Origin: Escherichia phage vB_EcoS_fPoEco01
Direction: 5' to 3' (one strand)
Length of the DNA: 44,391 nucleotides
Sequence record: NC_073317.1
A program made the position numbers and the translations under genes. The notes beneath the pieces are model-generated. The model made no database searches and was not told where the DNA came from. It was given only the letters and a program-made list of their open reading frames with translations. Below, piece after piece: positions 1 to 30,283 of this stretch. How positions within the stretch are numbered: position 1 is the stretch's first letter; each line of letters starts with the position of its first letter.

Positions 1-1251
1 ATGAGTATTCAGCTATCCGCTCCTCAGGCGCTGTTCCTGAACTGCGATAACAAATACAAGGCCTATGTCGGTGGCTTCGGTAGCGGTAAGACGTTTGTTG
101 GCTGTCTGGACCTGCTTACATTCATGCTTAAGCACCCCGGTACGCGCCTTGGTTACTTCGGCCCGACCTACCCGGCTATCCGCGATATCTTCTACCCGAC
201 ATTCGAGGAAGCTGCTAACCTCCTGGGCCTTGATGTGCTGGTTAAATCCGGCGACAAAGAGGTCGTCGTTACGAGAGGTAAGACAGTAATCGGTACAGTA
301 ATCTGCCGTTCGATGGATAACCCAGGCTCTATCGTCGGTTTCAAAATAGCCGCGGCGGTCGTTGATGAACTGGACGTTCTGAGCCGCGAGAAAGCGGAAC
401 TGGCGTGGAACAAAATCGTAGCCCGTATGCGTCTGGTTATCCCTGGAGTGGTAAACCACATCTCCGTTACCACGACACCGGAGGGATTCAAGTTCGTCTA
501 CGCCAAGTTCAAAGAGAACCCGACACCGAGTTACTCAATGGTGCAGGCTTCCACCCACGAGAACGCGCGATTCCTGCCGCCTGACTACATTAGCTCGCTG
601 ACCGAGACTTACCCAGCGCAACTGATTAACGCGTACCTGAATGGGGAGTTCGTTAACCTGACATCCGGCAGCGTCTACTACGCCTACGACCGACGTAAGC
701 ATCGCAGCAAAGAGACAATCCAACCGGGCGACACGCTGTACATCGGGCAGGACTTCAACGTTACGAAGAACGCCAGCGCCGTGTATGTGCAACGTAAAGA
801 CGGCTGGCACGCGGTAGCAGAACTGAAGGGCCTGTTCGATACGCCAGATACCGTGCGTGTGATTACCGAGAAGTGGAAGTCGCAAGGCCACCGCATCGTC
901 GTTTACCCGGACGCCAGCGGCAAGAACCGCAAAACCAACTCGGCGTCAATCTCCGATATCGCCTTACTACAGCAGGCCGGTTTTGATGTTCGCGCTAAAT
1001 CCGCCAACCCACCGGTTAAAGACCGTGTTTTAGCCGTGAATACCGCGCTGGAAAAAGGTAAGCTGTGGGTTAACGACCACTTATGCCCTGAGATAGCGAA
1101 GACGCTGGAGCAGCAGGCATATGATGATAACGGAGAGCCTGCTAAAGACGGCGTCATTGACCATATGGCGGATGCTCTCGGCTATCCTGTAGTTTATGAG
1201 ATGCCGGTGGTTAAACCAGTAATCAACATCCCGGTGACTTTCGCACTTTAA
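1..1251 (+). CDS. terL: terminase large subunit
   Basis: 416 aa; Walker A GGFGSGKT near N-terminus, Walker B-like AAAVVDELD, C-terminal nuclease-like region; followed directly by portal and head genes. Upstream context not visible (window starts at ATG). Confidence 0.85.
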   Translation: MSIQLSAPQALFLNCDNKYKAYVGGFGSGKTFVGCLDLLTFMLKHPGTRLGYFGPTYPAIRDIFYPTFEEAANLLGLDVLVKSGDKEVVVTRGKTVIGTVICRSMDNPGSIVGFKIAAAVVDELDVLSREKAELAWNKIVARMRLVIPGVVNHISVTTTPEGFKFVYAKFKENPTPSYSMVQASTHENARFLPPDYISSLTETYPAQLINAYLNGEFVNLTSGSVYYAYDRRKHRSKETIQPGDTLYIGQDFNVTKNASAVYVQRKDGWHAVAELKGLFDTPDTVRVITEKWKSQGHRIVVYPDASGKNRKTNSASISDIALLQQAGFDVRAKSANPPVKDRVLAVNTALEKGKLWVNDHLCPEIAKTLEQQAYDDNGEPAKDGVIDHMADALGYPVVYEMPVVKPVINIPVTFAL

Positions 1252-1263
1252 GAGGATTATTCA

Positions 1264-2745
1264 ATGTTAACTATGAACGGTCAGAATCAGGGTGTTAAGA
1301 CAAAACACCGGGAATGGCTGCATCACTTCAATAAATGGCAGAAGGTGCGCCACGCGCTGGAAGGCGACCTCATCCGTTACCTGCGCAATGTCGGGAAGAA
1401 CGAGCCTGACCCGACCTATGCGGCACAGCGCCAGGAAGAATACGAGAACGGCGCTATCTGCTACAACTTCACTAAACGTACCCTGGCGGGGATGGTCGGC
1501 AGTGTTATGCGTAAAGACCCTGAGCAGATTATCCCGCCTGAACTTGAGTACCTGTTACGCAACGCTGACGGTTCGGGCGTCGGGCTATGGCAGCACGCGC
1601 AGGATACTTTGATGGAAATTGACTCGGTAGGTCGTGGCGGGTTGCTGGTGGACGCCCCGGAGACAGCTGCGGCAACGGCAGCAGAGCAGAACGCAGGATT
1701 ATTAAACCCGGTCATCGCATTCTACACCGCAGAGAACATCATCAACTGGCGATTGACTCGCGTCGGTTCAGTGAACCGCGTAACGATGGTCGTGCTGCGT
1801 GAGGTATGGGAATACTCTGAACCGGGAGCAGAGTTCGAAACAAAGTTCGGTGAGCAGTACCGTGTTCTCGATTTGATTGACGGGCGCTACCGCCAGCGCA
1901 TTTACCGCTTCGATGCCGAAGGTGGCGCTCAGGGCGACGTAATCGAAATCTTCCCGGAACTCGGCGAACAGTTACGCGGCAAAATCCCGTTCACGTTCAT
2001 CGGGGCAAGCAACAACGATGCGACCATCGACGACGCCCCTTTGCTGCCGTTAGCTGAGCTTAATATCGGGCATTTCCGCAACAGCGCGGACAACGAGGAA
2101 TCCAGCTTCGTTGTAGGCCAGCCTACTCTGTTCATCGCCCCTGGCGAGAACATGAGCATGGAACAGTGGAAAGAAGCCAACCCTCACGGCGTGCGCATGG
2201 GGTCGCGTTCGGGCCATAACATCGGTTACGGTGGCAATGCATTTCTTGTTCAGGCAGGAGAGAACAACCTCGCCAAACAGAATATGCTGGATAAAGAGAA
2301 TCAGGCCATTCAGATTGGTGCGCAGCTTATCACCCCGACGCAGCAAATCACCGCCGAATCCGCCCGCCTGCAACGTGGCGCGGATACGTCTGTTATGGCG
2401 ACAATCGCACGTAACGTAAGTATGGCGTATACCGATGCATTGCGCTGGGTAGCGGCGATGCTAGGGTTGCGTGAAGGCACAGAGATTGAGTTCAAACTTA
2501 ACATGGAGTTCTTCCTGCAACCGATGACCGCTCAGGACCGCGCTCAGTGGATGGCGGACATTAATGCCGGTCTGCTGCCAGCGACCGCTTACTACGCCGC
2601 GTTGCGTAAAGCAGGGGTGACTGACTGGACCGACGAGGATATTCAGAACGCTATTGAGGACGCACCTCTGCCGTTAGGTGCTGTTACTCAGGTGGCAGGA
2701 GAGATTCCGCAGTCGGCGCAGCAACAAGATGTCACTCAGCAGTAA
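1264..2745 (+). CDS. portal protein
   Basis: 493 aa ORF immediately after terL and before Mu-F-like head morphogenesis gene; strong SD AAGAGGA 7 nt upstream of ATG; size and synteny typical of portal. Confidence 0.7.
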   Translation: MLTMNGQNQGVKTKHREWLHHFNKWQKVRHALEGDLIRYLRNVGKNEPDPTYAAQRQEEYENGAICYNFTKRTLAGMVGSVMRKDPEQIIPPELEYLLRNADGSGVGLWQHAQDTLMEIDSVGRGGLLVDAPETAAATAAEQNAGLLNPVIAFYTAENIINWRLTRVGSVNRVTMVVLREVWEYSEPGAEFETKFGEQYRVLDLIDGRYRQRIYRFDAEGGAQGDVIEIFPELGEQLRGKIPFTFIGASNNDATIDDAPLLPLAELNIGHFRNSADNEESSFVVGQPTLFIAPGENMSMEQWKEANPHGVRMGSRSGHNIGYGGNAFLVQAGENNLAKQNMLDKENQAIQIGAQLITPTQQITAESARLQRGADTSVMATIARNVSMAYTDALRWVAAMLGLREGTEIEFKLNMEFFLQPMTAQDRAQWMADINAGLLPATAYYAALRKAGVTDWTDEDIQNAIEDAPLPLGAVTQVAGEIPQSAQQQDVTQQ

Positions 2746-2781: not shown

Positions 2782-3858
2782 ATGCTATTAACTTTAGCGC
2801 CACAGGGTTTATCTATGAGCTTACTTACATCTCTAATCAGCCACCAGATATGGCTGCAACGCACTGCATCCGGTGAGGTGAAAGACCTCGCGCCGTTCAT
2901 TAAGGAGATGCGGGACGAAATAAAACGGCAGGTGCTGTTATTCGGTGACGACGGGCGGAGCACTGCGCGACTGAATAAACTGTTACTCGACCTTGAAGAA
3001 GCACTGACGGGGCTTACAGGTGACTGGCAAACAAAGCTGACAGAAGACCTTAAGGAACTGGCCGCATATGAGGCTGAGTGGAACGTAAAAACACTGACCG
3101 CCAACGTTGACGCGGAATTTGTTACGCCTACCGCCGAACAGGTGTGGGCTGCTGCCGAGTTTCAGCCGCTGTCGTTAAGCGACAAGCCCGTCGATTTCAC
3201 TAAGCTGATGGCAGGCTGGGGTGAAACGGAGGCCGCGCGCCTCGTAACCGGCGTTAAGATGGGGTTTGTTCAGGGCCAAACCACACGGCAGATTGTTAAA
3301 AATGTCGTAGGCGCTGGTGGGCTGGCGGACATCTCTGAACGCAACGCGGCTACGGTAATCCGCACCGCGCTGTCTCACGTATCCAACGAAGCCCGCAACG
3401 AGACATACCGCCAGAACGACGACATCATCGAGAAATACGAATGGGTGTCAACGCTGGACAGCCGTACCAGTACGATTTGCAGGGCCAGAGACGGGATGAC
3501 GTGGGAAATCGGTAAAGGTCCGATGCCCCCCGCCCATTTTGGATGTCGAAGTACCACTGCACCGGTAATCAGTTCGGAGTTCGACTTCCTAGATAAAGGT
3601 GCAAAACGCGCGGCTAAGGGTGCGGACGGCGGTATGCAGGTAAGCGCAGACACCACCTATTACGAGTTCCTGAAACAGCAACCGGCATGGTTCGTGGATG
3701 AAGCACTCGGACCTACCCGCGGTGCTATATTCAGGAATAGTGGGATATCCCCAGAGGAATTCCGGGTAATATCCGTCGACGCTTTTGGTAGACCTTTAAC
3801 CTTGAAGGAGATGGCGGCGTTAGATAACAGGGTTGCTGAATATCTTAGGTCGGTATAA
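2782..3858 (+). CDS. head morphogenesis protein (Mu gpF / SPP1 gp7-like)
   Basis: 358 aa; conserved STLDSRTSTICRARDG ... PPAHFGCRST motif typical of Mu F-like minor head proteins; position after portal. Confidence 0.75.
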   Translation: MLLTLAPQGLSMSLLTSLISHQIWLQRTASGEVKDLAPFIKEMRDEIKRQVLLFGDDGRSTARLNKLLLDLEEALTGLTGDWQTKLTEDLKELAAYEAEWNVKTLTANVDAEFVTPTAEQVWAAAEFQPLSLSDKPVDFTKLMAGWGETEAARLVTGVKMGFVQGQTTRQIVKNVVGAGGLADISERNAATVIRTALSHVSNEARNETYRQNDDIIEKYEWVSTLDSRTSTICRARDGMTWEIGKGPMPPAHFGCRSTTAPVISSEFDFLDKGAKRAAKGADGGMQVSADTTYYEFLKQQPAWFVDEALGPTRGAIFRNSGISPEEFRVISVDAFGRPLTLKEMAALDNRVAEYLRSV

Positions 3859-3928
3859 AGTATATCTAGTAGCTAGCTTTGGTCGGTGAACTACTAAAAA
3901 TAGAGAAAGAATATAACCCCATGAAGGT

Positions 3929-4552
3929 ATGCCTATCTCTGGCATCGACCAATCTTCATGGGGTTTTCTTATAGGGTTTAATATGGGAATTGTTTTTGGT
4001 GTGGGTATTAACGATGTTTCACCAATAAGTTGCGGAGGGGTGCATATAGCGTCCTACGCCGTATGGAAGAACATGTTAAAGAGGTGCTACGACAAGAAAT
4101 GGCAGCAAAGAAACAGAACTTATATAGGTTGCCGCGTGTCGGACGATTGGTTGGTGTTCAGTAATTTCAAGGTCTGGTTTGATGATTTTTATGTACCTGG
4201 GTGGCAGATAGATAAGGATTTACTTAACCCGGGAAATAAGGTTTACGATGCTTCTAACTGTGTTTTCATCCCTAAATCCCTCAATACTTTCCTAACAGCC
4301 CACGACGCTCTTCGAGGCGAACACCCACTCGGCGTACATTTCCATAAACAAAAGAAAAGATTCATCGCTCAAGTATCCGTGGATGGCGTATCTGAACAAA
4401 TAGGCGCTTACGAAACCGCTCAAGAGGCACACGTAGCATGGTTTCATAGAAAAATTGAATTAGCATATGAATACAAAGGTCTTTGCGATAGCATAGACCC
4501 ACGCCTTTTCGAAGGCGTCTTACGTAAGATTAACTCAATGAAAGAGGTTTAG
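3929..4552 (+). CDS. HNH-like homing endonuclease with C-terminal AP2-type DNA-binding domain (paralog 1, possibly degenerate)
   Basis: 207 aa; shares GVG.ND ... DW..FSNF..W ... GW.[IV]DKDLL ... C.F[IV]P..LN.FL ... RG..P.G core with ORF 12559..13191 and with the intein-nested HNH ORF; C-terminal AP2-like segment (KKRFIAQVSVDG...LGAYETAQEAHVAW). GWQIDKD here versus GWHVDKD in the paralog. Confidence 0.55.
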   Translation: MPISGIDQSSWGFLIGFNMGIVFGVGINDVSPISCGGVHIASYAVWKNMLKRCYDKKWQQRNRTYIGCRVSDDWLVFSNFKVWFDDFYVPGWQIDKDLLNPGNKVYDASNCVFIPKSLNTFLTAHDALRGEHPLGVHFHKQKKRFIAQVSVDGVSEQIGAYETAQEAHVAWFHRKIELAYEYKGLCDSIDPRLFEGVLRKINSMKEV

Positions 4553-5014: not shown

Positions 5015-5018
5015 TAAA

Positions 5019-5564: not shown

Positions 5565-5591
5565 TTATCATCTCCTGTTTAAGTTAACCGA

Positions 5592-5620: not shown

Positions 5621-5686
5621 ACTATTTGTTTACGTATTCCAGTTATTCCACTCAATTGTAAACGTTGGAATAAACTATTCGAATAG

Positions 5687-5715
5687 TTGACTTTTCACTG
5701 AAAATATGATAAGCT
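5687..5715 (+). promoter_or_regulatory. sigma70-like promoter (TTGACT-N17-TGnTAAGCT) driving structured RNA element A
   Basis: TTGACT at 5687..5692, extended -10 TGaTAAGCT at 5707..5715; same architecture at 37030..37058. A CTATTCGAATAG palindrome abuts the -35. Confidence 0.5.
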
Positions 5716-5829
5716 CCACCTGAGCTTGTGAAGTATGAACAAGCGACCGCGGCGCGGGCAGGTAACGGAGCGGGACGTAAGTCCTGAGTGTAGTTACGCT
5801 GACGCGTTCGGAAGGGCCATACTCTATTG
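5716..5829 (+). ncRNA. candidate structured RNA element A (promoter-proximal; paired with copy at 37059..37173)
   Basis: About 115 nt highly similar to 37059..37173 with compensatory changes preserving two stems (GUAAC/GUUAC vs GGAAC/GUUCC; GGAC-GUAA-GUCC vs GUGCC-AUUA-GGCAC) and a conserved hairpin GCUUGU...ACAAGC; no ORF. Confidence 0.45.
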
Positions 5830-5895
5830 CTTGTGTAAAAAGTAACTGGTTTACTGAGATTACGCCGTTTCTATGTTTAAATGATAAGGACTAGC

Positions 5896-5919
5896 GCCCC
5901 GCTTTAAGGCGGGGCTTTA
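5896..5919 (+). terminator. rho-independent terminator downstream of RNA element A
   Basis: GCCCCGC-tttaag-GCGGGGC followed by TTTA; lies between RNA element A and the Rz start. Confidence 0.5.
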
Positions 5920-5939
5920 CTTATCGAGAAAGGGGAAAC

Positions 5940-6326
5940 ATGAATCTTAAAGCAACTGTCGTAGCCGGAGCATGTTTCGTCGTCCTAGCCTACGCACACG
6001 GCATCTATCAATACCGCAGCGGCTGGGGTGAAGGCCGTGCTAATCTCGTTTCGCAGCAACAGCAGAAAGCACAGGCTGAGCTGACGAAGAAAACACAACG
6101 GCAGCAGCAGGATGAATCAAAGGCCGCCGCCGCTGACAACGAAGGCAAGACGAAATCAGAGGTGATTACCCGTGAAGTCGTTAAGTACATTAAAACGCCT
6201 GGCCGCAGCGTGTGCACTTTCGACGATGCTCGCGTCCTGCTCAAGTCCCACGCCGTTGCCAACGCCAATTCCATCCCCGGATACGACGATGATGCAGCCG
6301 CCGTGCAAACTGGCACCGCCAAGTAG
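5940..6326 (+). CDS. Rz: i-spanin (Rz-like)
   Basis: 128 aa; N-terminal TM segment (ATVVAGACFVVLAYAHGIY), Gln/Lys-rich coiled-coil-like periplasmic region, C-terminal Cys; contains an embedded +1-frame lipoprotein ORF. Confidence 0.65.
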   Translation: MNLKATVVAGACFVVLAYAHGIYQYRSGWGEGRANLVSQQQQKAQAELTKKTQRQQQDESKAAAADNEGKTKSEVITREVVKYIKTPGRSVCTFDDARVLLKSHAVANANSIPGYDDDAAAVQTGTAK

Positions 6327-6435
6327 CGACGCTGACGAGGATTTAGCTATCGACGTTCAGAACGCCGAATGTGTACGGCAACTGAGACTGAAAGTGTTCA
6401 TGTTGCAGGATTACGTGAGGAATATTCTGGAATAG
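6172..6435 (+). CDS. Rz1: o-spanin (Rz1-like lipoprotein) embedded in +1 frame of Rz and extending beyond it
   Basis: GTG start with SD GAGGTGA; signal peptide with lipobox LAS-C followed by proline-rich mature region (CSSPTPLPTPIPSP...); classic Rz/Rz1 nested architecture. Confidence 0.6.
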   Translation: MKSLSTLKRLAAACALSTMLASCSSPTPLPTPIPSPDTTMMQPPCKLAPPSSDADEDLAIDVQNAECVRQLRLKVFMLQDYVRNILE

Positions 6436-10117: not shown

Positions 10118-10477
10118 ATGAGCACCGCTTTCAGTAAACGTATGCAAGGCGTCGGTACACGCCTGCTAACCAAATTCGGTAGCACGGTATCTCTTGTTCG
10201 CGCTGGCTCGAAAGTGTGGGATGAAGTTCTCGGTGAGTATGTCCGGTCCGCGGATGAAGTGTTGCCGTTGAAGGCTGTTCCGGTTCCGGTAAACGTTGGA
10301 CTGGTAAACGGTACGACGATTCAGGCGGGCGACATGATTGTTAAAGCCGATTGCAGTGTCGTTCCTAAGATGGAAGACAAGGTGCAATTCGGCGGCGAGC
10401 AATGGTCCGTCGTAGCTATCGAGAAGAAGATGGTTAACGATGATGTCGTGGCATACTTTATTCAGGTGAGAAAATGA
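10118..10477 (+). CDS. head-tail joining protein (putative)
   Basis: ATG at 10118 with SD GAGG preferred over upstream alternative start; 119 aa; synteny. Confidence 0.35.
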   Translation: MSTAFSKRMQGVGTRLLTKFGSTVSLVRAGSKVWDEVLGEYVRSADEVLPLKAVPVPVNVGLVNGTTIQAGDMIVKADCSVVPKMEDKVQFGGEQWSVVAIEKKMVNDDVVAYFIQVRK

Positions 10478-10869
10478 GTTTCGCGCTTGATGTCTCTAAG
10501 TTCGTGGAAAAGGCGAAGAAGAACCCCGAGAAGGTGATGCGTCAGGTGTCTATCAAGCTGTTTTCCGCTATTATAAAGGCGAGTCCGGTAGATACGGGCC
10601 GCTTTCGTATGAACTGGATGGTGTCTGGCGGTACTCCTGCTTCCGGGATTACGGACGCCACCGATAAATCAGGAAACACGGCAACCGGAAACGCCACTAG
10701 TTTTGTGCTGAAAGCCGCAGACTGGCACGAGTTCACGCTGACTAATAACCTGCCGTACGCCCAACCTCTTGAGTACGGTTGGTCGCAACAGGCCCCGCAA
10801 GGCATGGTCAGGACTAATGTGTCACGCTTCCAGCAACTAATTAATGAAGAAGCCAATAAGGTAAAATGA
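10474..10869 (+). CDS. HK97 gp10-like tail completion / head-tail adaptor protein
   Basis: 131 aa; contains SPVDTGRFRMNW resembling the P.DTG.L motif of the HK97 gp10 family. Confidence 0.45.
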   Translation: MSFALDVSKFVEKAKKNPEKVMRQVSIKLFSAIIKASPVDTGRFRMNWMVSGGTPASGITDATDKSGNTATGNATSFVLKAADWHEFTLTNNLPYAQPLEYGWSQQAPQGMVRTNVSRFQQLINEEANKVK

Positions 10870-11282
10870 TGGGCTACTTTGAAGACTTAACCAAAGCGTT
10901 CGACGTGCCGCTGGTAGCCTTCGGGGCCGCCAACGGCATCAGGGTAGCGCTTGAGAACATCGACGCTCCGACGTCAACCGATACGCCATACCTTGCGAGT
11001 TACATGCTACTGGCGGATACCGAGCAGGCCGACTTATTTTTCACCGAGCAACGTGCAGGTATTTATCAGGTAGACATTAACTACGCATCTGTGAAAGGTA
11101 GCGCGCCAATCAATAAAATGGCAGACTTACTTAACACGGCATTCAAAGCAGGTAAGTCTTTTTCACGTAACGACATCTGCGCCGAAGTGCAATCGGTTAG
11201 CCTGGGGCCGCTGATTGTAGAAAATGGATGGGCCAAAAGACCATTGTCGATTAACTTTATTGCATTCACCAAGAGGCTGTGA
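10866..11282 (+). CDS. tail terminator-like protein (putative)
   Basis: 138 aa ORF immediately upstream of major tail protein gene; synteny only. Confidence 0.3.
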   Translation: MMGYFEDLTKAFDVPLVAFGAANGIRVALENIDAPTSTDTPYLASYMLLADTEQADLFFTEQRAGIYQVDINYASVKGSAPINKMADLLNTAFKAGKSFSRNDICAEVQSVSLGPLIVENGWAKRPLSINFIAFTKRL

Positions 11283-11284
11283 AT

Positions 11285-12451
11285 ATGGCTACAACTCCTT
11301 TTAAGGGCGCGAATACCGCGCAATTCTATGTGGCGGAAACTACCCCGGGCGTGACACCGACTTCCCCGGTATGGTCGCCGTTGCGCAATACTGGCGGTGT
11401 TCCTGCGGTAACCCGCGACGCGCTGACCTCCAACGAACTCGACGGCAGCAGAGAAACCACATCCATCCGCACCGGTAACAAACAGGTTAGCGGGGAGTAC
11501 GCCATCGAACTTAGCTCACGTAGCCAGGATGATTTCCTTGCGGGTGCTATGACTTCTACGTGGCAGGATGGGGTAGAGATTACGGGTGCTGAAATTACGG
11601 TCGCTCCAGCAGGTAAAACATTCACCCGCGCTGCCGGTTGCTTCATTACTGACGGTGTAGAAGTTGGCGACCTGATTGCGTTCACCGACTTAACCGGCGA
11701 CAACGCAAAACCGTTTATCGTGACTGAGGTTTCTGCTCTTGTAGTTACGGGTGCGGGTATCCAGCACACGCTGACAGCAGAGACTGTAACCACCGACGCT
11801 AAAACAGGCGATAAACTGGAAACCGGTAACGCATGTAAGACGTTCTCCATCCTGACATGGTTCAAAGGACAGTGCGGGAACCCTGACGCGTACATGCTGA
11901 CCAAAGGCGTGGAAATCTCCGGTTTCACCATTGAACAGGCCGTAAACGCGATGGTGACAGGCAGCTTCCCGTTCATCGGTCTGAGTCAGGAAATTCTTTC
12001 TGCACCGCCAGCAGGTTCTGATTTCTCTCAGGTGACGTTTACCGATGAGCCGTTCTCATCCGTAGATGTGTCTGTGTTCGACGGTTCTACGCCGTTGCGT
12101 TGCGATACTCTGACCATCACCAACGACAACGGTGCGTCCGCACAGTTCGAACTAGGCAACAGTAGCGTCGCGTTCGTGGAACGTGGTCGCGCGGCTAACA
12201 CATTCTCCATCTCCGGCAAGCTGTACGACATGGCGATGATTCAGAAGTTTATCAACGAACAGCAGGTAGAGATTAACTCTATTCTGGCGGGGGTAAACGG
12301 GGCTATGTCTTTCAGCCTGAAACGTGCCGAGTTGACCGCAGTTACGCCAGAAATATCTGGCCCAGAATCAATCACCCAGAGCATAGAGGGACAGTCCACC
12401 GGCAATCAGTACCAGTCATCTATCGTAATTCAGCGTATTAGTTACACATAA
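11285..12451 (+). CDS. major tail protein
   Basis: About 389 aa, Thr/Gly/Ser-rich, SD AAGAGG upstream of ATG 11285; located upstream of tail chaperone and tape measure genes; followed by terminator. Confidence 0.6.
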   Translation: MATTPFKGANTAQFYVAETTPGVTPTSPVWSPLRNTGGVPAVTRDALTSNELDGSRETTSIRTGNKQVSGEYAIELSSRSQDDFLAGAMTSTWQDGVEITGAEITVAPAGKTFTRAAGCFITDGVEVGDLIAFTDLTGDNAKPFIVTEVSALVVTGAGIQHTLTAETVTTDAKTGDKLETGNACKTFSILTWFKGQCGNPDAYMLTKGVEISGFTIEQAVNAMVTGSFPFIGLSQEILSAPPAGSDFSQVTFTDEPFSSVDVSVFDGSTPLRCDTLTITNDNGASAQFELGNSSVAFVERGRAANTFSISGKLYDMAMIQKFINEQQVEINSILAGVNGAMSFSLKRAELTAVTPEISGPESITQSIEGQSTGNQYQSSIVIQRISYT

Positions 12452-12495
12452 CTTGTGGTATAAGAAGAGTAAAGGATAGCTTTAGCGGGCGAAAA

Positions 12496-12524
12496 AGAGA
12501 GGGGTCGTGCCCTCTCTTTCCTTT
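12496..12524 (+). terminator. rho-independent terminator after major tail gene
   Basis: AGAGAGGG-gtcgtg-CCCTCTCT followed by TTTCCTTTAT. Confidence 0.5.
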
Positions 12525-12558
12525 ATATGGTAAATACACGAGCCTGACGAGGTGAATA

Positions 12559-13191
12559 ATGTTCTTGTATGAAGAATTTGAAAAGATACCAGCATCAAAA
12601 CGGGCGGTATCATGCCGTAAAACAATCTGCGGAGTCGGTGTCAACGATGCAGATTTCACCACCAGTATTTTCAACGGCAAAAAGTCTGTTAACCACCCGG
12701 TGTACGATATTTGGTGTGCGATGATATTCAGGTGCTACCATGGGTCCGTTAAGCATCCAACATACTCAGGAGTGGTAGTGTGTGAAGACTGGCTGTATTT
12801 CTCCAACTACTTTAAATGGTACAAAGATAACTACGTAGAGGGTTGGCATGTTGACAAAGATTTGCTTACGGATTCTAAAGAATACTCACCGGATACCTGT
12901 ATATTTGTCCCAAGAGTTTTAAACAACTTTCTAACCGACAGCGCAGCGGCTAGAGGTGACCTACCGATAGGCCTTACTTATAGGAAAACAAACGGCAAGA
13001 TTCGATGCAGGGTTAATAATCCGCTAACCGGGGTGCGCGAAAACTTAGGCGATTTTACCGATTTGGATGAAGCCATCAAGGCCAGAACGCTGCGGAAGTT
13101 AGAGATAGCCGGAGAACTTAAGCCACTTATGGATTCCATAGACGGGAGAATCTATCCGAGGGCCGTTTCTGTAATTAAGGCACAACGATAA
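12559..13191 (+). CDS. HNH-like homing endonuclease with AP2-type domain (paralog 2)
   Basis: 210 aa; paralog of 3929..4552 with GWHVDKDLL...CIFVPRVLNNFL and AP2-like C-terminus; SD GAGGTGA; inserted between major tail gene and chaperone genes. Confidence 0.55.
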   Translation: MFLYEEFEKIPASKRAVSCRKTICGVGVNDADFTTSIFNGKKSVNHPVYDIWCAMIFRCYHGSVKHPTYSGVVVCEDWLYFSNYFKWYKDNYVEGWHVDKDLLTDSKEYSPDTCIFVPRVLNNFLTDSAAARGDLPIGLTYRKTNGKIRCRVNNPLTGVRENLGDFTDLDEAIKARTLRKLEIAGELKPLMDSIDGRIYPRAVSVIKAQR

Positions 13192-13195
13192 AACT

Positions 13196-13218
13196 AAGGC
13201 CCCTTTCGGGGCCTTTTT
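13196..13218. terminator. bidirectional rho-independent terminator
   Basis: AGGCCCC-tttc-GGGGCCT followed by TTTTT; between + strand HNH gene and the end of the minus-strand moron operon. Confidence 0.55.
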
Positions 13219-13219
13219 C

Positions 13220-13450
13220 TTACTCATCAATATTGCTTCGGTACTCCCGTAACTTCTCCAGGCTTTCGATTGCCTCAGCTAAGTCTGTCCAGGTGTCCTT
13301 GTGACCACGTAAACCCATACACAATAGCTTCTTCAATGCGTGCTGTAACGCCGGGTCGCGTATGTCGAAGGCGCGTAGCACGTCGTAAACGTCTACAGTC
13401 ATGGTGCTGCCGTGGGTGTTTGTCATTGTGCGGTTGTATTTATTTGTCAC
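13220..13450 (-). CDS. hypothetical protein (moron operon, 76 aa)
   Basis: Last gene of minus-strand operon 15067 to 13196; no recognisable motif. Confidence 0.4.
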   Translation of the reverse strand: MTNKYNRTMTNTHGSTMTVDVYDVLRAFDIRDPALQHALKKLLCMGLRGHKDTWTDLAEAIESLEKLREYRSNIDE

Positions 13451-13640
13451 GGTTAACTCTCTTAAATCGGGCTATGCCTGACTCGTTAATGCTGCCTATT
13501 TCAAAGAAGCTGCGATATTTAGGCGAATACATTCTTACGTCGCCGTTCTCTAGGGTGACCCCTTCATATACAGCGCCTACTTCGAATCCATTTTTCTCCG
13601 CGTACGGACTCACATCGGTGCATTCATACATATCTTTCAT
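13440..13640 (-). CDS. hypothetical protein (moron operon, 66 aa)
   Basis: Start overlaps stop of upstream gene (translational coupling). Confidence 0.4.
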   Translation of the reverse strand: MKDMYECTDVSPYAEKNGFEVGAVYEGVTLENGDVRMYSPKYRSFFEIGSINESGIARFKRVNRDK

Positions 13641-14767
13641 CCCAGCATCTCCGGTGAAATAGTTAAACGTGCGACCTCGCCATATTCGGCGCTATAAGTA
13701 ATTACATTTGCACTACGGCCCGACATCCATCCGCCGCGCGAGGCGTAGGCGTCTTTAGCCGCTAAGGTGCGGTGTTGCTCAACAATCATGTTACGGCTTT
13801 CTACAATCTTCTGGTGGTGGAGGTGGCCTACGTGGGCGTAGCTGTAAACGCTTTCGCCAAATGCTTTGCGGAACTTGGCAATCATAACCGGTTCGATATC
13901 GTCTAATCGCGCCTTATGCCCGTGGTGAAAGAACAGCGTAGTTTTGCCGTGTTGGACCATCTTGTAAACATCCGGCGACGTATCGACGAACACACGCGGC
14001 TCATTGTCGTACAGCGTACTAAACATCTCAGCTAACCAAATCATTCCGCTTTCGTCGTGGTTCCCTTGCACGATAAGCAAGCGAACAGATTTATGCTTAA
14101 CCAGCGCCATGTCAACAACACGGCGTACCATACGAATCATGTAGCGGACCAGTTTCTGATAACGAGTGTCCGCATCAAGAACATGACCACTCGCTGGCGT
14201 AACCGCATCCAGACTATCGAAGTGCGCGAAGTCACCCAGCAGGTTAATAACCCCAGTTCCTGCATCTGGTGCTTTCTGAAACGCCGCATCGAACCATCGG
14301 GAGAACAGGTCTTCCGCAATCTTCATATCCCAGTCGTCGCCGCTCTCGTCAGCCCAGGCCAGCATACCAAGATGGAAATCAGATACCGTGTACAGATTGA
14401 GTAGTTTATCGTCGCGTTTGGCTCGAGTCGCTTTAACCGGCGCAACTGGCGTAATCTCCGACTTCATTCCTTCGATCACGGCTTTCATTAACTCGACCTG
14501 ACGTTCGGCGTCGGTGTCTGTCTTAACCCATTGCAACTTAGTGTTGCCGAACTCGTCCACCAGTGACGACGTTCCTTTAATTTTGTAGCCGTCCGGGACA
14601 AGATGGCTAACGTCACGACCGTGACCTACGCCTTTCTTCGCCAGCTTCGCTTTACGGATACGAATAACTCGGTCTGAGATGCCGTATTTACGGGATATGT
14701 CGATAATCTTTGTTCCGGCGTTCAATTCTTCCTGTAACTGTTCGTCGGTTATTTTCTTCCGGGCCAT
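13637..14767 (-). CDS. HTH domain + calcineurin-like metallophosphoesterase fusion protein
   Basis: 376 aa; N-terminal HTH-like segment (ITDEQLQEELNAGTKIIDISRKYGISDRVIRIRKAKL); C-terminal metallophosphoesterase motifs in order: SDFHLG (D-x-H), LLGDFAHFD (GD-x-D), QGNHDE (GNHD/E), FFHHGH, HVGHLHH (GH-x-H); SD GAGGAAG. Confidence 0.6.
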   Translation of the reverse strand: MARKKITDEQLQEELNAGTKIIDISRKYGISDRVIRIRKAKLAKKGVGHGRDVSHLVPDGYKIKGTSSLVDEFGNTKLQWVKTDTDAERQVELMKAVIEGMKSEITPVAPVKATRAKRDDKLLNLYTVSDFHLGMLAWADESGDDWDMKIAEDLFSRWFDAAFQKAPDAGTGVINLLGDFAHFDSLDAVTPASGHVLDADTRYQKLVRYMIRMVRRVVDMALVKHKSVRLLIVQGNHDESGMIWLAEMFSTLYDNEPRVFVDTSPDVYKMVQHGKTTLFFHHGHKARLDDIEPVMIAKFRKAFGESVYSYAHVGHLHHQKIVESRNMIVEQHRTLAAKDAYASRGGWMSGRSANVITYSAEYGEVARLTISPEMLG

Positions 14768-14805
14768 GCTTACTTCCTCGTGTTTAGGATTTGTCCTATA
14801 CTAGC

Positions 14806-14997
14806 TCACTTCTCTTTGACATTCGAGTTGCAAGCCCAGATTAAAATAAATACCCACGGCAGCAGAACCCAGCCGAGAAACAGATTAGCCATGAATATCG
14901 CCAGTTTCGCTTTATGTCCGCGCATATGGGCCACTAAAAACGGGATAAAATAAACTAAAACGATAATGATTAAGAAGAACATAGTAATACCTGTCAT
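14806..14997 (-). CDS. Imm-like superinfection immunity membrane protein
   Basis: 63 aa from ATG 14997 (SD AGGAG 7 nt upstream); two TM segments; sequence MFFLIIIVLVYFIPFLVAHMRGHKAKLAIFMANLFLGWVLLPWVFILIWA matches the YF.P...A..R.H....AIF..NLFLGW...W...LIWA pattern of the superinfection-immunity family. Track ORF extends further upstream without a convincing start. Confidence 0.55.
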   Translation of the reverse strand: MTGITMFFLIIIVLVYFIPFLVAHMRGHKAKLAIFMANLFLGWVLLPWVFILIWACNSNVKEK

Positions 14998-15038
14998 GGT
15001 GTAGCTCCTGTTTGAGTTAACATTGTTGGTGTAAGTGA

Positions 15039-15067
15039 ATAGTATCCTATTATGTTGGGGTGCGCAA
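15039..15067 (-). promoter_or_regulatory. class I promoter (TTGCGC-N17-TACTAT) with AATAG-N4-CTATT palindrome, driving moron operon
   Basis: Reverse complement TTGCGCACCCCAACATAATAGGATACTATTCAC, nearly identical to 37339..37367. Confidence 0.55.
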
Positions 15068-15175
15068 GTAATGTGATAGAATAATTTTGCGCCTAGTGTC
15101 GCACACGAAAAGCGGGTGGTTCCCGTCTGGCGCATTTACCATTAACCTGTAACCTCTTAACCAAAGGATTAAAGA

Positions 15176-26322: not shown

Positions 26323-26517
26323 TTAACCCTTAACGTAGAGCACCAGCTCTTTACGCCCGAACGCCGTAACGTTACCAGTTACATCTTCGATAACCAGTTT
26401 ACCGTTCGACTCGACGAACACCGTATCAACGGCAACAGGGCGACGGGTCTTAACGCTGAAAATCATGTCGCCTGGTACGATGTCACGTGCTGGCTTGCGG
26501 TCATATTCGTGTTTCAT
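26323..26517 (-). CDS. hypothetical protein
   Basis: 64 aa ORF downstream of class II promoter 26551..26579. Confidence 0.4.
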   Translation of the reverse strand: MKHEYDRKPARDIVPGDMIFSVKTRRPVAVDTVFVESNGKLVIEDVTGNVTAFGRKELVLYVKG

Positions 26518-26547
26518 TTCTCAATTCCTTATATTGTTGGTGTGTGA

Positions 26548-26832
26548 TTAACTATAATAGCTCGCTATTAGGTCGTCAACCTGTTTAAACGAACCAACGA
26601 CAAAAACATTTGCACCACGTTTGCTCATCCGCTCGTGCTCTCGTAGCTGATGCGGGTCTGGCTTCGTGTTTTCGTCTTTCTTAACCTCGACAAACCAGAC
26701 TATGCCGCCTGGGAGAATTACCAGCAGGTCGGGAGCACCCACTCTATTTTCGTACGACAATTTGCGTACGAGGCCGCCAATGGCCTCGAATCGGTCTTTT
26801 GCGTATTTCTGTACGCGGCCCTCTTTAGTCAT
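26548..26832 (-). CDS. VRR-NUC domain nuclease
   Basis: About 94 aa from ATG 26832; PDLLVILPGGIVWFVEVKK...QL..H..M...G motif arrangement typical of VRR-NUC. Confidence 0.6.
   Translation of the reverse strand: MTKEGRVQKYAKDRFEAIGGLVRKLSYENRVGAPDLLVILPGGIVWFVEVKKDENTKPDPHQLREHERMSKRGANVFVVGSFKQVDDLIASYYS
26551..26579 (-). promoter_or_regulatory. class II promoter (TTGACG-N17-TATAGT) with AATAG-N4-CTATT palindrome
   Basis: Reverse complement TTGACGACCTAATAGCGAGCTATTATAGT; overlaps the last codons of the VRR-NUC gene; same architecture at 31182..31210 and 33800..33829. Confidence 0.5.
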
Positions 26833-26981
26833 GACCACAGAATCCAGGTAAGGAAAGCCCCTCCTAGAAGGGCAACACCGACAAACTTAAAGAACAGGCC
26901 GTAACAGAACATCGCAGCTATTCCCGCACCGAGTAACAGTGCGAGCATGGTTACTATCGTCCAAAATACAAACATCGTCAT
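26829..26981 (-). CDS. small membrane protein (50 aa, hypothetical)
   Basis: Two hydrophobic segments; stop overlaps VRR-NUC start (ATGA); SD GAGGGG; not in track. Confidence 0.3.
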   Translation of the reverse strand: MTMFVFWTIVTMLALLLGAGIAAMFCYGLFFKFVGVALLGGAFLTWILWS

Positions 26982-27184
26982 AATACACACCCCTCACGTT
27001 TCGTATGTTCAATACCACAGCGCGGGCAGATTCGACAGTCTTCTTCGTAGAACCAGTAAATTTTCATTCCAGCACCCACAGATAAATTGCGATGAACATG
27101 CCTAATACGGCGACAGTCATGCCGTATTGACCCTCGTGACAGTAGATACCGGCGGCAAATCCCGCCAGTACCGCGATAATCAGT

Positions 27185-30100
27185 TTACTTAGCATAGCGC
27201 TTCATCTCCGCACCTTCCGCGACAAGAGGGAAGCCTTCTGCCCACTCAGGCAACGCGCACATTAATTTTTCCAGCTCGGGCACCGTGTAATCCGGCGTAT
27301 CCGGAGTTTCACATACCAGTTCATCGTGTACCGAAAGCACGATTGGATACCCGCCACCCTCAACATTAATCATCGCATATGCGAGTAGATCACGGCACAG
27401 CGCCTGAACAATGTTTTCACAGGCTTTACCGCCGTGGGTGTACAGGGTAGTCCATTGGCGGGTTAACTGGTTTTCACCTTGGTACTTGATTCGCACATTC
27501 GTGTTTACCCGTCCGTCTTCGTCTGTTTCCTTTGTCACGCTAACTCCGATTCCCGGATACGAAAGGATACGGCCCGACGGCAACTCCACGCACAACCACC
27601 AACCAGGAACCTTCCTACCGGATGAATCAAATTCTACTGTTCTCCATATTCGGATAGCGCGCTCGCCATTCCTGCGCAAGTGTGCTCCCGCCCAAAATTC
27701 ACGACCAGGATTACGCACAGCGGCTAAAATTCCGTCTTTAAGGTCGCGCCAGAACGCTACTGTTTCAGGGTGTGACTCACGCCACATACGCTTGATTGCG
27801 TCGCATGTGCGCCACACTTTCTTGTCCAGAATATACGATGGTCGGTCGTCCTTTTCACCAGGATGCGGTGGTCGCTTTGCTTCCTGGATACGCGCCCATT
27901 CATATCCTCTCGCGGTGGCTGACCAGATGTGGTCCGGGAATGTACCGTCCATTGTTTTAGCCATCTCAATAAGGTCGAGGCCTAAGTTTTTGGCGAACGT
28001 AACGAATGCTCCGACGCCTCCCTCGTAGCCGAGGCCCAGTTCGCAGTTATGCGCCACAAGAAAGCCAGAGTCTGAGGCTATAAGAAAACGGTTGCCGTCT
28101 CCCACATCAATCAGGTCGTACACCGGCTCGCAATAGGTTAATTTCCCGTTCAAGTTCAGCAATGCGGGCAACGGCTGCATCATACTTTCGTTGAAGCTCG
28201 GGTATTTGCCGTCTGTTTCGGCAGTTTTCAGAACGGCTGACAAACCGAATGTTTCCAGGTTCGTAGTTACCGTCTGTGTCGATTCTATCCATTTCGAGGT
28301 TCGGGTCATCCCAGCCTTCCAGAGTTTGAACATATCTAAGAAAAGACCTTTTATCAGTCCTCCACTGGTCGAATACCGTGATGCCTCTTGCCCCATAGTT
28401 TTTATAACCCTTATTCCTGGGGCTTGTTGTTCGCGTGATCGCCGCGGACAGCCGGTTGAGTAATCGCGTTCTGTGCACATCATCCGGCATTGCGTCTTCG
28501 TAGCAGAAATACTGTTTACGATATTTTTTTGTTGCTTCAAGGGCGCAGCGGTTGCATTGAGTGGTTTTACCCGCTCTGACATTGTCATAATAGACCCGCC
28601 CCGGCATCTCTCCGCAATCACATTGGACGAGTAGTTGTCTTTGGCCTTGTCGTTTTGGTAACTCGCGCAGGATAACCAGGCGTCCATACCTCTCTCCAGG
28701 GCGAGGCCCATCATATATCTGTTTGAAGCGAGTTGCTTTGCCTGCTTCCAGGAATGCGCCAAGATTTTGTGGTCTTCTGTCATTAGCACCCCGTCCACAT
28801 TTATTACCGGTTTCCACCCCATAAGGTGCGCGCCTTTTGTATTCACCCATTTTTCACCGCTCCATACTTTATCTGTTGATATAACCGCCATAATATCCTT
28901 AAATCCGCCATCGGTCAAAACTTGGGTATGACGGTGAAGGCACGCTTTACCAATCTGGCGCAAGTCTTTACGTTCTTTCTTAATATCGTCTGGGTCCATG
29001 CCGAACATCTTACCCGCGGTTACGCAGTAAATATCAAGGCCAGCACGGAACGTATCGAGTGCGGTTTCCTCCCCGGCCAGCCACGCAAGCCCTCGTCCTT
29101 CAACGTTAGAGTAATCGGCAACAACAAACTTATGCCCCACTTCCGGTATGATGCAGCTACGTACCGTCGATGCCGTTAGCTTGGCTACATCAAAACGGCG
29201 GTGTGCCCGGCCTTTAAGTAACGCTGAAATGCCTTTATCCAGTTCATCATCGTGATAGTACCCGCGCGCCAGGTTCTGTGGTTGGAAGCCTTTACCCGCC
29301 CACCGCAAAGTGCGTTTTGCCCCACCGTACTGTAAACAACCCCGGCGGCGGTCGTCCGATGAGCGGCCCAACAGCAGTGGGTTATATTTCGTTGACGCGG
29401 TGGATGCGGCCCCGAGGCGCATTTCGATAATCGTGCGAGCATCGTCCGGTAAATCATCGTCCGCCAGCAGGTCGTTAAGCGTAGACTTCTGCGCGTTGTG
29501 GATGCGGTGCGCAGGGGCCAGTTCACGAAGAATCGGCAGAAAGTCCTTACCAGTAAGCGAGCCGCCGTATTTGCGTTGGGCTTCCTCCTGTAACTGCGCT
29601 TTGTGTTTCTCCACGGCTTCAATAGCGGCTTCCGCCAGTGCAACGTCAACCTTAAACCCGCGGTCGTTGATTAACTGGTCCAGTTCCAGTACACGGTCTT
29701 CTAACTCAGAGTTACCCCAACGCGGCAGCTTATGGAAGACTTCACGCATTGCAGTGATGTCGCTCACGGCGTACTTGATGAACAGCGCCCACTCGTCCGG
29801 GTGTGTTTCGGCGGTGTAACGGCGGATTTTGTAGTTCTTTGGCGTAGGTTTGGAGAAACGCTTAATCAGCGCCTTGCCGCGTTTATCTTTCGCGTTATCC
29901 GCAGATACGCCCAGCACTTCGCACAATGCATCGAGAGAACCCGGCAGCGCGTGACGAAACGCCCAAATCATCGTATCAATGGTGTTGCTTACAGGAATAT
30001 CAAAGCCCCAGCAGTGTTTCATGATGAGCCTGTCGAACATTGAGCCGTTGTGCCACACCATCTTAATACGACTGTTCGGCTTAACCAGGCGGCGCAGTGC

Positions 30101-30283
30101 GCGGTGCAAATCACCCGGCATGTCGCTGCCGTCGGTGCAATCCCATACCCGCACAGGCTCGTCGTCAAAAGCATATGTGCAGATAAGCACTTCGGTAGTC
30201 GGGTGTTCGGCGTAAGCGTAGGAGCCGACTTTCTTTAAATCTGCTTCGGAGAATGTTTCAAAGTCCAGGTATAAGTAGCTCAT
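27185..30283 (-). CDS. family A DNA polymerase with 3'-5' exonuclease domain, interrupted by an intein in motif B
   Basis: Exo I LDFETFS; motif A VVADYSNVEGRGLAWLAGE; motif B split as RQIGKA / CELGLGYEGGVGAF by the insert; motif C LSVHDELV. ATG 30283 with SD AAGGA preferred over track TTG at 30337. Confidence 0.8.
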   Translation of the reverse strand: MSYLYLDFETFSEADLKKVGSYAYAEHPTTEVLICTYAFDDEPVRVWDCTDGSDMPGDLHRALRRLVKPNSRIKMVWHNGSMFDRLIMKHCWGFDIPVSNTIDTMIWAFRHALPGSLDALCEVLGVSADNAKDKRGKALIKRFSKPTPKNYKIRRYTAETHPDEWALFIKYAVSDITAMREVFHKLPRWGNSELEDRVLELDQLINDRGFKVDVALAEAAIEAVEKHKAQLQEEAQRKYGGSLTGKDFLPILRELAPAHRIHNAQKSTLNDLLADDDLPDDARTIIEMRLGAASTASTKYNPLLLGRSSDDRRRGCLQYGGAKRTLRWAGKGFQPQNLARGYYHDDELDKGISALLKGRAHRRFDVAKLTASTVRSCIIPEVGHKFVVADYSNVEGRGLAWLAGEETALDTFRAGLDIYCVTAGKMFGMDPDDIKKERKDLRQIGKACLHRHTQVLTDGGFKDIMAVISTDKVWSGEKWVNTKGAHLMGWKPVINVDGVLMTEDHKILAHSWKQAKQLASNRYMMGLALERGMDAWLSCASYQNDKAKDNYSSNVIAERCRGGSIMTMSERVKPLNATAAPLKQQKNIVNSISATKTQCRMMCTERDYSTGCPRRSREQQAPGIRVIKTMGQEASRYSTSGGLIKGLFLDMFKLWKAGMTRTSKWIESTQTVTTNLETFGLSAVLKTAETDGKYPSFNESMMQPLPALLNLNGKLTYCEPVYDLIDVGDGNRFLIASDSGFLVAHNCELGLGYEGGVGAFVTFAKNLGLDLIEMAKTMDGTFPDHIWSATARGYEWARIQEAKRPPHPGEKDDRPSYILDKKVWRTCDAIKRMWRESHPETVAFWRDLKDGILAAVRNPGREFWAGAHLRRNGERAIRIWRTVEFDSSGRKVPGWWLCVELPSGRILSYPGIGVSVTKETDEDGRVNTNVRIKYQGENQLTRQWTTLYTHGGKACENIVQALCRDLLAYAMINVEGGGYPIVLSVHDELVCETPDTPDYTVPELEKLMCALPEWAEGFPLVAEGAEMKRYAK
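28046..28942 (-). mobile_element. intein (299 codons) inserted in DNA polymerase motif B
   Basis: Starts with Cys (CLHRHTQVLTDGG...; block B-like GVLMTEDHKIL), ends ...VYDLIDVGDGNRFLIASDSGFLVAHN followed by +1 Cys; removal restores contiguous motif B. Boundaries verified codon by codon against the DNA. Confidence 0.7.
28107..28850 (-). CDS. HNH-like homing endonuclease ORF nested inside the intein in a different reading frame
   Basis: 247 aa ORF offset by 2 nt from the polymerase frame; ATG preceded by GGAG at 9 nt spacing; C-terminal GW...DRIDTDGNYEPGNIRFVSRSENCRN resembles the HNH_3-type core and the two free-standing paralogs. Confidence 0.6.
   Translation of the reverse strand: MGEYKRRAPYGVETGNKCGRGANDRRPQNLGAFLEAGKATRFKQIYDGPRPGERYGRLVILRELPKRQGQRQLLVQCDCGEMPGRVYYDNVRAGKTTQCNRCALEATKKYRKQYFCYEDAMPDDVHRTRLLNRLSAAITRTTSPRNKGYKNYGARGITVFDQWRTDKRSFLRYVQTLEGWDDPNLEMDRIDTDGNYEPGNIRFVSRSENCRNRRQIPELQRKYDAAVARIAELEREINLLRAGVRPD

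Follow-up and report, generated by a model that had tools for sequence, protein, structure and literature searches.

Free-standing IPA-HNH homing-endonuclease-like genes and an intein with an overprinted endonuclease-like gene in Escherichia phage vB_EcoS_fPoEco01

Results

Two paralogous genes of a named family in the structural module

Escherichia phage vB_EcoS_fPoEco01 is a Kagunavirus (Guernseyvirinae) siphophage of E. coli, whose 44.4-kb genome (NC_073317.1) was analysed at its full length of 44,391 nucleotides, hereafter the window. Its structural module contains two free-standing open reading frames (ORFs), A and B, that resemble homing endonuclease genes (HEGs), and an intein in its DNA polymerase gene contains a third endonuclease-like gene in a different frame. 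An initial annotation made from the sequence had described ORFs A and B as AP2-bearing paralogs, and both are indeed found on the plus strand:

12559..13191, plus strand: ORF B, 210 amino acids, free-standing homing-endonuclease-like gene of the IPA-HNH family (phrog_953 match, Gp209 homology, selection estimate, AlphaFold model)
3929..4552, plus strand: ORF A, 207 amino acids, second gene of the IPA-HNH family (phrog_953 match, Gp209 homology, selection estimate)

BLASTP aligned the two proteins over 191 amino acids at 37% identity (E 2e-38), and on this alignment they are real paralogs. Database annotations start ORF A at 3983 (Met19), which yields a protein of 189 amino acids and agrees with the family alignment better than the start at 3929. 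Both proteins matched phrog_953 ('HNH endonuclease'; E 1e-68 for ORF B and 3e-79 for ORF A), and GenBank depositors had noted HHpred matches to I-HmuI for their orthologs. BLASTP alignments to Gp209 of ICP1 were full-length and spanned both domains (E 3e-19 for ORF B and 8e-18 for ORF A), and the ICP1 match recovered by tblastn with ORF B is the gene 'previously called GP209'.

Gp209 is, together with Gp59 and Gp115-116, a founding ICP1 member of the 'IPA-HNH HEGs', which the original report characterizes by an HNH-like N-terminal domain too divergent for Pfam HNH_3 and a C-terminal AP2 domain (Barth, Dunham & Seed 2023, PMC10448857). The same report describes these genes as free-standing, located near essential genes and at the borders of exchanged sequence blocks, and abundant in Barbaviruses and Flaumdraviruses. 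A and B share this architecture and placement, and the Gp209 homology together with the matching description identifies them, at the level of sequence, as new members of this already named family. They differ in their host lineage, a Kagunavirus coliphage outside the lineages highlighted in the accessible part of that report, and in their insertion sites at the ends of the tail-tube and head-morphogenesis genes, which are peculiar to this group. A literature search returned no later work on the IPA-HNH family.

A profile search recovered 5,240 cluster representatives of the A/B family at E <= 1e-30, and tblastn located members in Vibrio, Rheinheimera (Barba), Pseudomonas (KIL1), Aeromonas and other phages, with several copies per genome often seen in those of Vibrio, Rheinheimera and Pseudomonas. 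The co-occurrence of such genes in one genome had initially been interpreted as multiple invasions by a single, actively spreading family. This did not hold up: A and B resemble each other (37% identity) no more closely than they resemble unrelated metagenomic members, which points to independent acquisitions rather than recent intragenomic spread.

Precise insertions at the ends of two structural genes

For each of the three genes, relatives of the window provide natural alleles that carry it and others that lack it. Comparison with insertion-less relatives, as had been proposed in the initial annotation, located precise insertion boundaries for A, B and the intein. The features of the ORF B site are as follows:

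12452..13187, plus strand: 736-bp inserted block with ORF B, from the tail-tube stop codon to the bidirectional terminator (comparison with fBC-Eco01)
12494..12519, plus strand: terminator-like hairpin in the inserted block, 5' of ORF B
13196..13215, unstranded: bidirectional terminator hairpin, common to relatives without ORF B
12301..12451, plus strand: tail-tube gene 3' end, whose haplotype is linked to ORF B; candidate target or co-conversion tract

In fBC-Eco01, which has no ORF B, homology ends at the tail-tube stop codon (12451) and restarts at 13188, at the bidirectional terminator region (13188-13225). No sigma-70-like promoter was predicted on the plus strand of the inserted block, so ORF B is likely to be expressed by read-through from the tail operon. 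Orthologs of ORF B with at least 90% amino acid identity occur in only 10 phage records, compared with 760 records that match the surrounding 4 kb. Among phages that carry the gene, fEg-Eco19 and fFiEco02 are 99-100% identical to the window across 12301-13230, with flanks at 89-95%. In phages without it, the last 150 nucleotides of the tail-tube gene have 80-85% identity and the neighbouring segment 88-97%; relative to fBC-Eco01 these 150 nucleotides contain 26 nucleotide differences and only 2 amino acid differences. The ratio of nonsynonymous to synonymous substitution rates (dN/dS) of ORF B, estimated against its ORH_001 ortholog, is 0.05.

Other endonuclease genes have settled at the same place. 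Canonical HNH-AP2 genes with the motif D-H-x-D...N lie on the opposite strand at or beside the ORF B site (window ~12452-13640) in KMB36 (1678..2217, minus strand) and EC3-1 (1928..2398, minus strand), and this presence of different HNH-AP2 genes marks the interval between the tail-tube gene and the accessory cassette as an endonuclease-gene insertion hotspot.

The ORF A site has two features:

3846..4538, plus strand: 693-bp inserted block with ORF A, within the last four codons of the head-morphogenesis gene (breakpoints relative to fFiEco03, fEg-Eco19 and Snoke)
3601..3845, plus strand: 3' end of the head-morphogenesis gene, where identity to A-less alleles falls off towards the insertion

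This cassette gives the head-morphogenesis gene a new end (RSV-stop), and at its own 3' end a copy resembling the displaced gene end ('KEV-stop'-like) is present and the Shine-Dalgarno sequence of the Hoc-like decoration gene is restored. Orthologs of ORF A occur in 3 phage records, compared with hundreds that share the flanks; besides the window, only fFiEco02 and Schulenburg carry it among the records listed. Identity to the A-less fFiEco03 declines stepwise from 100% (3101-3400) to 90%, 82.7% and finally 70.2% in the 95 nucleotides adjoining the insertion (3751-3845), a stretch in which Schulenburg, which has ORF A, is 95.8% identical. The dN/dS of ORF A relative to Schulenburg is 0.06.

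Sporadic occurrence at fixed sites, as insertions relative to close relatives, agrees with the original view of A and B as homing-endonuclease-like selfish genes; no non-nuclease family was assigned to them, and most relatives do not have them. The claim that they interrupt the structural gene order stood as regards the insertions themselves, whereas the neighbours had been slightly misdescribed as capsid and tail-chaperone genes. The genes on either side of ORF A are those for head morphogenesis and for the Hoc-like decoration protein, and these two overlap directly in A-less relatives; ORF B is flanked by the tail-tube gene and an accessory cassette on the minus strand, and in all relatives this cassette parts the tube gene from the chaperone genes.

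The surroundings of the two genes also bear on whether the proteins might be active nucleases that serve mainly inter-phage or anti-satellite competition by excluding co-infecting genomes, as ICP1 Odn does, with their spread as a by-product. HEG-derived nucleases have been co-opted in this way in ICP1 (PMC10448857), both genes are under strong purifying selection, and ORF B adjoins a cassette with a superinfection-immunity gene. Yet neither protein has undergone a swap of the DNA-binding domain of the Odn type, both keeping the standard AP2 architecture, and they are inserted next to essential genes that are conserved among competitors as well, the arrangement that is classical for homing. Marker exclusion is moreover compatible with homing, so that this explanation, which we consider improbable, is a shade of homing and not a true alternative to it.

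The head-morphogenesis gene has been a site for another element in a relative. Snoke carries an intein in this gene at HPN|C, which corresponds to 3538..3546 of the window, and a 269-amino-acid ORF (948..1757, minus strand) runs antisense through the intein, with weak PHROG matches to DNA-binding proteins (E ~3e-4). This ORF may be an antisense homing endonuclease like those reported for actinophage minor-capsid inteins. Exactly at this site the window has HFG|C where HPN|C is common (codons F242-G243, 3538..3543), and this FG allele, found in 13 phage records, might be an intein-resistant target variant. A link between the PN-to-FG substitution and ORF A was considered and rejected: the allele is present in all phages with ORF A, and also in the A-less ORH_001, Ivi, fBC-Eco01 and others.

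A conserved motif without the canonical histidine

Two segments of ORF B carry the putative functional domains:

12844..12933, plus strand: predicted beta-beta-alpha element of ORF B (residues 96-125), bearing the invariant D99-K100-D101, Y109, C114 and N122
12964..13140, plus strand: AP2/ERF-like DNA-binding domain of ORF B (residues 136-194)

An AlphaFold (AF2) model of ORF B, built with 24 homologs as input, reached a predicted local distance difference test (pLDDT) score of 89. The AP2-like C-terminal domain was confirmed for both A and B, and the N-terminal domain is a divergent HNH-like one. A check of all three proteins with HNH_3 and AP2 profiles, which had been suggested at the outset, bore out the AP2 part for A and B, whereas HNH_3 and other HNH models matched none of the three. 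The Pfam HNH profiles, HNH_3 included, found nothing in A, B or 24 homologs, and the PHROG HNH families matched strongly; since the curated HNH models are silent, the HNH label draws its support from the names of PHROG families, from HHpred notes of depositors and from remote alignment.

Residue conservation was evaluated in 165 aligned A/B family representatives with a pairwise identity of at most 50%. D99, K100, D101, Y109, C114 and N122 (numbering of ORF B) are invariant, as are W52, R58, Y69, W78 and W87 in a helical N-terminal extension; among the cysteines only C114 is invariant, with C59 frequent. The initial annotation had contrasted GWQIDKD in A with GWHVDKD in B as the possible mark of a degenerate active site in A, but position 97 varies throughout the family (H 49, Q 49, E 22, A 12, D 11, S 7, C 7 and others), so no conserved catalytic residue is located there. 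Both paralogs retain every invariant residue, and A is therefore no more 'degenerate' than B.

The canonical histidine position is occupied in A and B by K100 according to secondary-structure spacing, or by L/I102 according to a gapless alignment to the family of the nested protein described below. By sequence alignment, the invariant D99/D101 and N122 of A/B, and the invariant D187 and N208 of the nested family, are putative counterparts of the canonical metal-ligand Asp and Asn. A tyrosine between the two strands is conserved in both families (Y109 in 165 of 165 A/B representatives, Y195 in 36 of 36 nested-protein sequences). Fold searches with the models gave PacI as the best nuclease match, with only the AP2 domain confidently recognised, and Foldseek against the PDB returned the AP2 domain as the sole match.

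Canonical HNH(_3)-AP2 homing endonucleases with an I-HmuI-like core (Magnani et al. 2004), represented in related phages by genes of KMB36, EC3-1, fEg-Eco19 and fFiEco03, resemble A and B in module order, in the spacing from motif to AP2 domain and in lifestyle, and they use the same insertion hotspot in relatives. Their motif, D-H-x-D...N-L-R...N, includes a general-base histidine, whereas that of A/B reads x-[LV]-D-K-D-[LI]-L...Y-S-P..C-x-F-V...N, without a conserved histidine; the helical N-terminal extension of A and B is a further difference. When the A/B N-terminal domain was compared by hhalign with five canonical HNH-AP2 genes of related phages there was no significant alignment, and the AP2 domain alone aligned.

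PacI itself functions without a catalytic histidine, an omega-loop tyrosine taking its role, and His-Me fingers that have neither residue are inactive (Jablonska et al. 2017, PMC5714182). With the histidine missing, the Asp, Asn and loop tyrosine invariant, and this precedent at hand, a PacI-like mechanism is a reasonable proposal, and the conservation pattern suggests PacI-like variant chemistry in A, B and the nested protein. The likeness has limits. PacI (His-Me finger group 20; PDB 3m7k/3ldy) is a homodimeric restriction enzyme with two Cys4 zinc sites that flank its catalytic motif, whereas A and B have no such cysteine clusters, and in the nested protein the four cysteines belong to a CapR-like domain of their own at the N-terminus.

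We advance more tentatively, as a possibility that we would not yet favour, that the IPA-HNH and 'MDRID' families may together make up a large and biochemically untouched branch among the His-Me-finger homing endonucleases, whose members have no general-base histidine and cut in the manner of PacI. In these enzymes the omega-loop tyrosine would act as nucleophile or activator, with help from the invariant Lys or Arg, possibly in covalent or nicking chemistry unlike that of classical HNH enzymes. As a corollary, the polymerase intein of Guernseyvirinae and Dhillonvirus phages would be among the most widespread and recently mobile inteins driven by an overprinted, out-of-frame endonuclease.

The same residues could be read in another way, namely that A and B are catalytically dead, HNH-derived AP2 DNA binders, acting as regulators or otherwise domesticated, that ordinary phage recombination moves passively as 'moron' cassettes. 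A His-Me finger that has no histidine may bind DNA and do no catalysis, Smad MH1 being an example (PMC5714182), and in A and B not only is this histidine absent but HNH profiles are silent and AP2 is the one domain that fold searches recognise with confidence. Genes that benefit the phage typically show a dN/dS as low as the 0.05 seen here, and some databases label homologs 'putative DNA binding protein / transcription factor'. Arguing for catalysis, the Asp and Asn aligned with metal ligands are invariant together with the omega-loop tyrosine, which is the PacI solution for an active enzyme that has lost the histidine. Passive carriage also fits poorly with sporadic presence at exact sites, other HEGs at the same site, a block of identity and a divergence gradient centred on the gene, and a family that is multi-copy in genomes and found at recombination boundaries (PMC10448857). 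We therefore judge a catalytically dead pair to be unlikely.

A polymerase intein with an out-of-frame gene

The third gene lies in the replication module, on the minus strand:

27185..30283, minus strand: DNA polymerase A precursor, with a probable start ATG at 30283 (the mechanical ORF reaches 30337)
28046..28942, minus strand: class-1 intein of 299 amino acids, with Cys1 (CLHRHTQV), block B LMTEDHKIL (TEDH) and FLVAHN followed by Cys+1
28107..28850, minus strand: nested ORF of 247 amino acids in the +2 frame relative to the intein, with a CapR-like four-cysteine domain, an 'MDRID' HNH-like motif and a C-terminal coiled coil

The insertion measures exactly 299 codons (897 bp) and is open in the polymerase frame in 6 of 6 sequences. 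The polymerase of fFiEco03 is a precise intein-less allele of 733 amino acids in which GKA|CELG is contiguous, and the window polymerase minus 299 amino acids has the same length. The site GKA|CELG is one that we take to be PolA motif B. The records of vB_SenS-Ent1 and BPS11Q3 annotate the same insertion as an intein. Kagunavirus and Jerseyvirus phages share 93-99% nucleotide identity across the intein, although the flanking exteins have diverged to a synonymous distance (dS) of 0.4-1.3; a near-identical intein beside diverged exteins is a strong sign of recent horizontal movement. We infer protein splicing because the polymerase is essential and the splice-junction residues are conserved.

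The presence of an intein with a nested HNH-like ORF had been proposed in the initial annotation and is confirmed here, except that the nested ORF had not been recognised as out of frame. It lies wholly within the intein, offset by 2 nucleotides, beginning 92 nucleotides after the first base of the intein and stopping 61 nucleotides before the last, with GGAG 9 nucleotides 5' of its ATG, and it is intact in 6 of 6 intein-bearing polymerases examined. Pairwise dN/dS over the shared bases is 0.11-0.19 in the nested frame and 0.56-0.90 in the intein frame. In the central 495 nucleotides of the intein, 45 of 70 variable sites fall at position 3 of nested-frame codons; towards the ends, position 3 of polymerase-frame codons accounts for 9 of 12 variable sites in the first 92 nucleotides and for 5 of 7 and 5 of 7 in the last 117. 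This pattern flips between the centre and the ends, which shows that the constrained frame switches within the intein, and the codon-position counts support translation of the intein ends in the polymerase frame.

An alternative for this insertion is given in the record of Sodalis phage SO-1, whose gp38 'contains type I self-splicing intron' and whose nested gp39 is an 'HNH endonuclease; type I self-splicing intron'. That the insertion would be a group I intron with an HNH ORF gains something from the curated Pfam and NCBIfam intein/Hint profiles, which, like a PDB-sequence search, gave no match to the intein at E up to 10. We nevertheless find it hardly credible. The insertion is open in all six sequences, begins with Cys, contains a TxxH block B and ends in VAHN followed by Cys; polymerase-frame third positions are favoured at both ends (9/12, 5/7); and Rfam found no group I intron in it at E up to 10, while other records call it an intein. 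On the Rfam negative and the intein motifs, the group I intron was rejected as a candidate.

In SO-1 (NC_013600) the polymerase coding sequence is continuous (10313..13501), and gp39 (11259..12017; both on the minus strand) is 81% identical to the nested protein. The label 'type I self-splicing intron' is probably an error for an intein that contains an out-of-frame endonuclease gene.

The structural model of the nested protein (pLDDT 81) comprises a disordered N-terminus over the N-terminal splicing region of the intein, the four-cysteine beta domain, a helical region, and a strand-strand-helix unit with MDRID followed by a long helix, with no AP2 domain. Pfam CapR matches the four-cysteine domain in 8 of 36 nested-protein homologs. 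MDRID is invariant in this family, and hhalign sets D187-R188 on the D-H of canonical HNH-AP2 genes, with R188 at the histidine.

The initial annotation had also posited a core common to the nested protein and A/B. At the profile level this stands (hhalign probability 65%, E 6e-5, 73 columns, with shared PHROG cross-hits), the gapless alignment pairing D101/D187, Y109/Y195, F116/F202 and N122/N208 with Leu/Ile at the histidine position; at the level of single sequences it does not, as BLASTP of ORF B against the nested protein was not significant (E 0.25) and AP2 is absent. The further proposal of one endonuclease family for all three genes fails, given the CapR-like zinc domain, MDRID motif and coiled coil of the nested protein: by these comparisons it is of a different family, with a remote, profile-level relation to A/B.

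At 80% identity or more the nested gene is found in ~161 phage records, where the sampled matches fall under a DNA polymerase gene, an unnamed feature or no annotated feature; more distant homologs of its protein are free-standing 'HNH endonucleases'. Preprints from 2025-2026 report endonucleases encoded out of frame within actinobacteriophage and cyanobacterial dnaX inteins, alongside hidden HNH ORFs in phage methylases, and the hidden ORF of Pacc40 is a distant tblastn match of the nested protein. As in the published cases, the nested ORF is on the same strand in another frame, the in-frame translation of the stretch matches no domain, purifying selection tracks the endonuclease frame, and the intein is sporadic and moves horizontally. 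It differs from them in its host (PolA motif B in Guernseyvirinae and Dhillonvirus enterobacterial phages), in its endonuclease type (a CapR-like zinc domain with 'MDRID', where published cases are EndoVII-like or LAGLIDADG), and in overlapping parts of the N- and C-terminal splicing regions. It is thus another example of a described arrangement and not a new kind.

Discussion

Homing as the favoured explanation

We consider that A and B are probably free-standing IPA-HNH homing endonuclease genes that spread by homing, and that the nested gene is probably a separate endonuclease-like gene that drives homing of the intein. Both cassettes are inserted where an essential structural gene ends: that of B at the tail-tube gene, that of A at the head-morphogenesis gene. 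During co-infection with a cassette-less relative, the protein would bind through its AP2 domain and cut or nick near the 3' end of the structural gene, and repair by recombination from the HEG-bearing genome would copy the cassette with a short flanking tract. Sequence differences in this tract would shield the carrier's own allele. The nested gene, overprinted in the +2 frame of a class-1 intein, would presumably drive homing of the intein into intein-less polymerase alleles.

Family membership, domains, precise insertion boundaries, sporadic distribution, purifying selection, the frame-specific switch of selection and the signatures of horizontal transfer are directly supported. Nuclease activity, target sites and catalytic chemistry of the three proteins we infer from their sequences. 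The divergence patterns around A and B match homing with co-conversion and target-site protection, short of proof. Free-standing HEGs of the T4 type (Seg, Mob) offer a parallel: they too are located between genes or at gene ends, beside essential genes, with flanking tracts of co-conversion or divergence and upstream hairpins that may limit expression. The nuclease families differ, being GIY-YIG or, for Mob, canonical HNH, and activity was shown experimentally there, whereas here the proteins are known from sequence.

Several observations weigh against this explanation. Searches of Pfam, NCBIfam and PDB sequences found no HNH model that matches A, B, the nested protein or members of their families. 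The nuclease motifs of the A/B and nested families contain no conserved general-base histidine, which could mean that catalysis was lost, as in Smad MH1. The literature searched held no biochemical data for any IPA-HNH member. The very strong purifying selection on ORF B (0.05) would also be expected of a domesticated regulator, and the divergent flanks could be ordinary recombination breakpoints.

The observation from which this analysis started is largely right, and its homing-endonuclease reading is reasonable; much of it was already known, in that the IPA-HNH family is named and the intein is annotated in relatives, and the three genes are clear but largely ordinary mobile elements that do not overturn current understanding. 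What retains interest is that the catalytic histidine is absent throughout the family, so that tyrosine may serve in a PacI-like mechanism, and that there is a well-supported overprinted endonuclease in a very common intein of enterobacterial phages. The three donor/recipient allele pairs, in phages of E. coli K-12-type hosts, are clean and tractable; they are suited to asking if 'HNH' genes without the histidine code for nucleases, and to learning how an endonuclease gene overprinted on an intein comes to be expressed. The cassettes also mark recombination boundaries in Kagunaviruses that are candidates for therapy. For annotation, A and B should be given as IPA-HNH/AP2 homing-endonuclease-like genes and the polymerase as an intein-containing precursor with an overlapping endonuclease gene in the +2 frame; the nested gene is left out of most records of its ~161 carriers, and one record calls the insertion a group I intron.

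Genome mosaic and neighbouring elements

The window is 99.9% identical to vB_EcoS_fFiEco03 across 11000-15000 and 99.4% identical to fFiEco02 across 2800-6400, and the polymerase region has no match above 93%, which marks the genome as mosaic, made up of segments seen in known relatives. Searches of the window with the three proteins and with five canonical HNH-AP2 proteins, together with PHROG scans of nine unassigned ORFs, brought up no additional HEG-like gene. In the replication module, fFiEco03 has an extra canonical HNH-AP2 homing endonuclease gene (26502..26999) between the helicase gene and the next small ORF, which is absent at the corresponding position of the window (~26320-26323) and constitutes another presence/absence polymorphism.

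The minus-strand cassette next to ORF B (13220..15135) lies amid the plus-strand structural module, with the tail-tube and tail-chaperone genes on either side. It contains two small ORFs, a metallophosphoesterase/'DNA repair exonuclease' gene (13637..14767) and a superinfection-immunity-like gene (14806..15135); the small ORFs differ among relatives, and fBC-Eco01 has an additional 157-bp ORF-bearing segment. The terminator hairpin sequence downstream of ORF B (13189..13217) is repeated in fFiEco03 at ~4321-4351 and ~24734-24762 (93-100% identity over ~30 nucleotides), a recurrence that suggests a terminator module reused at strand-switch points.

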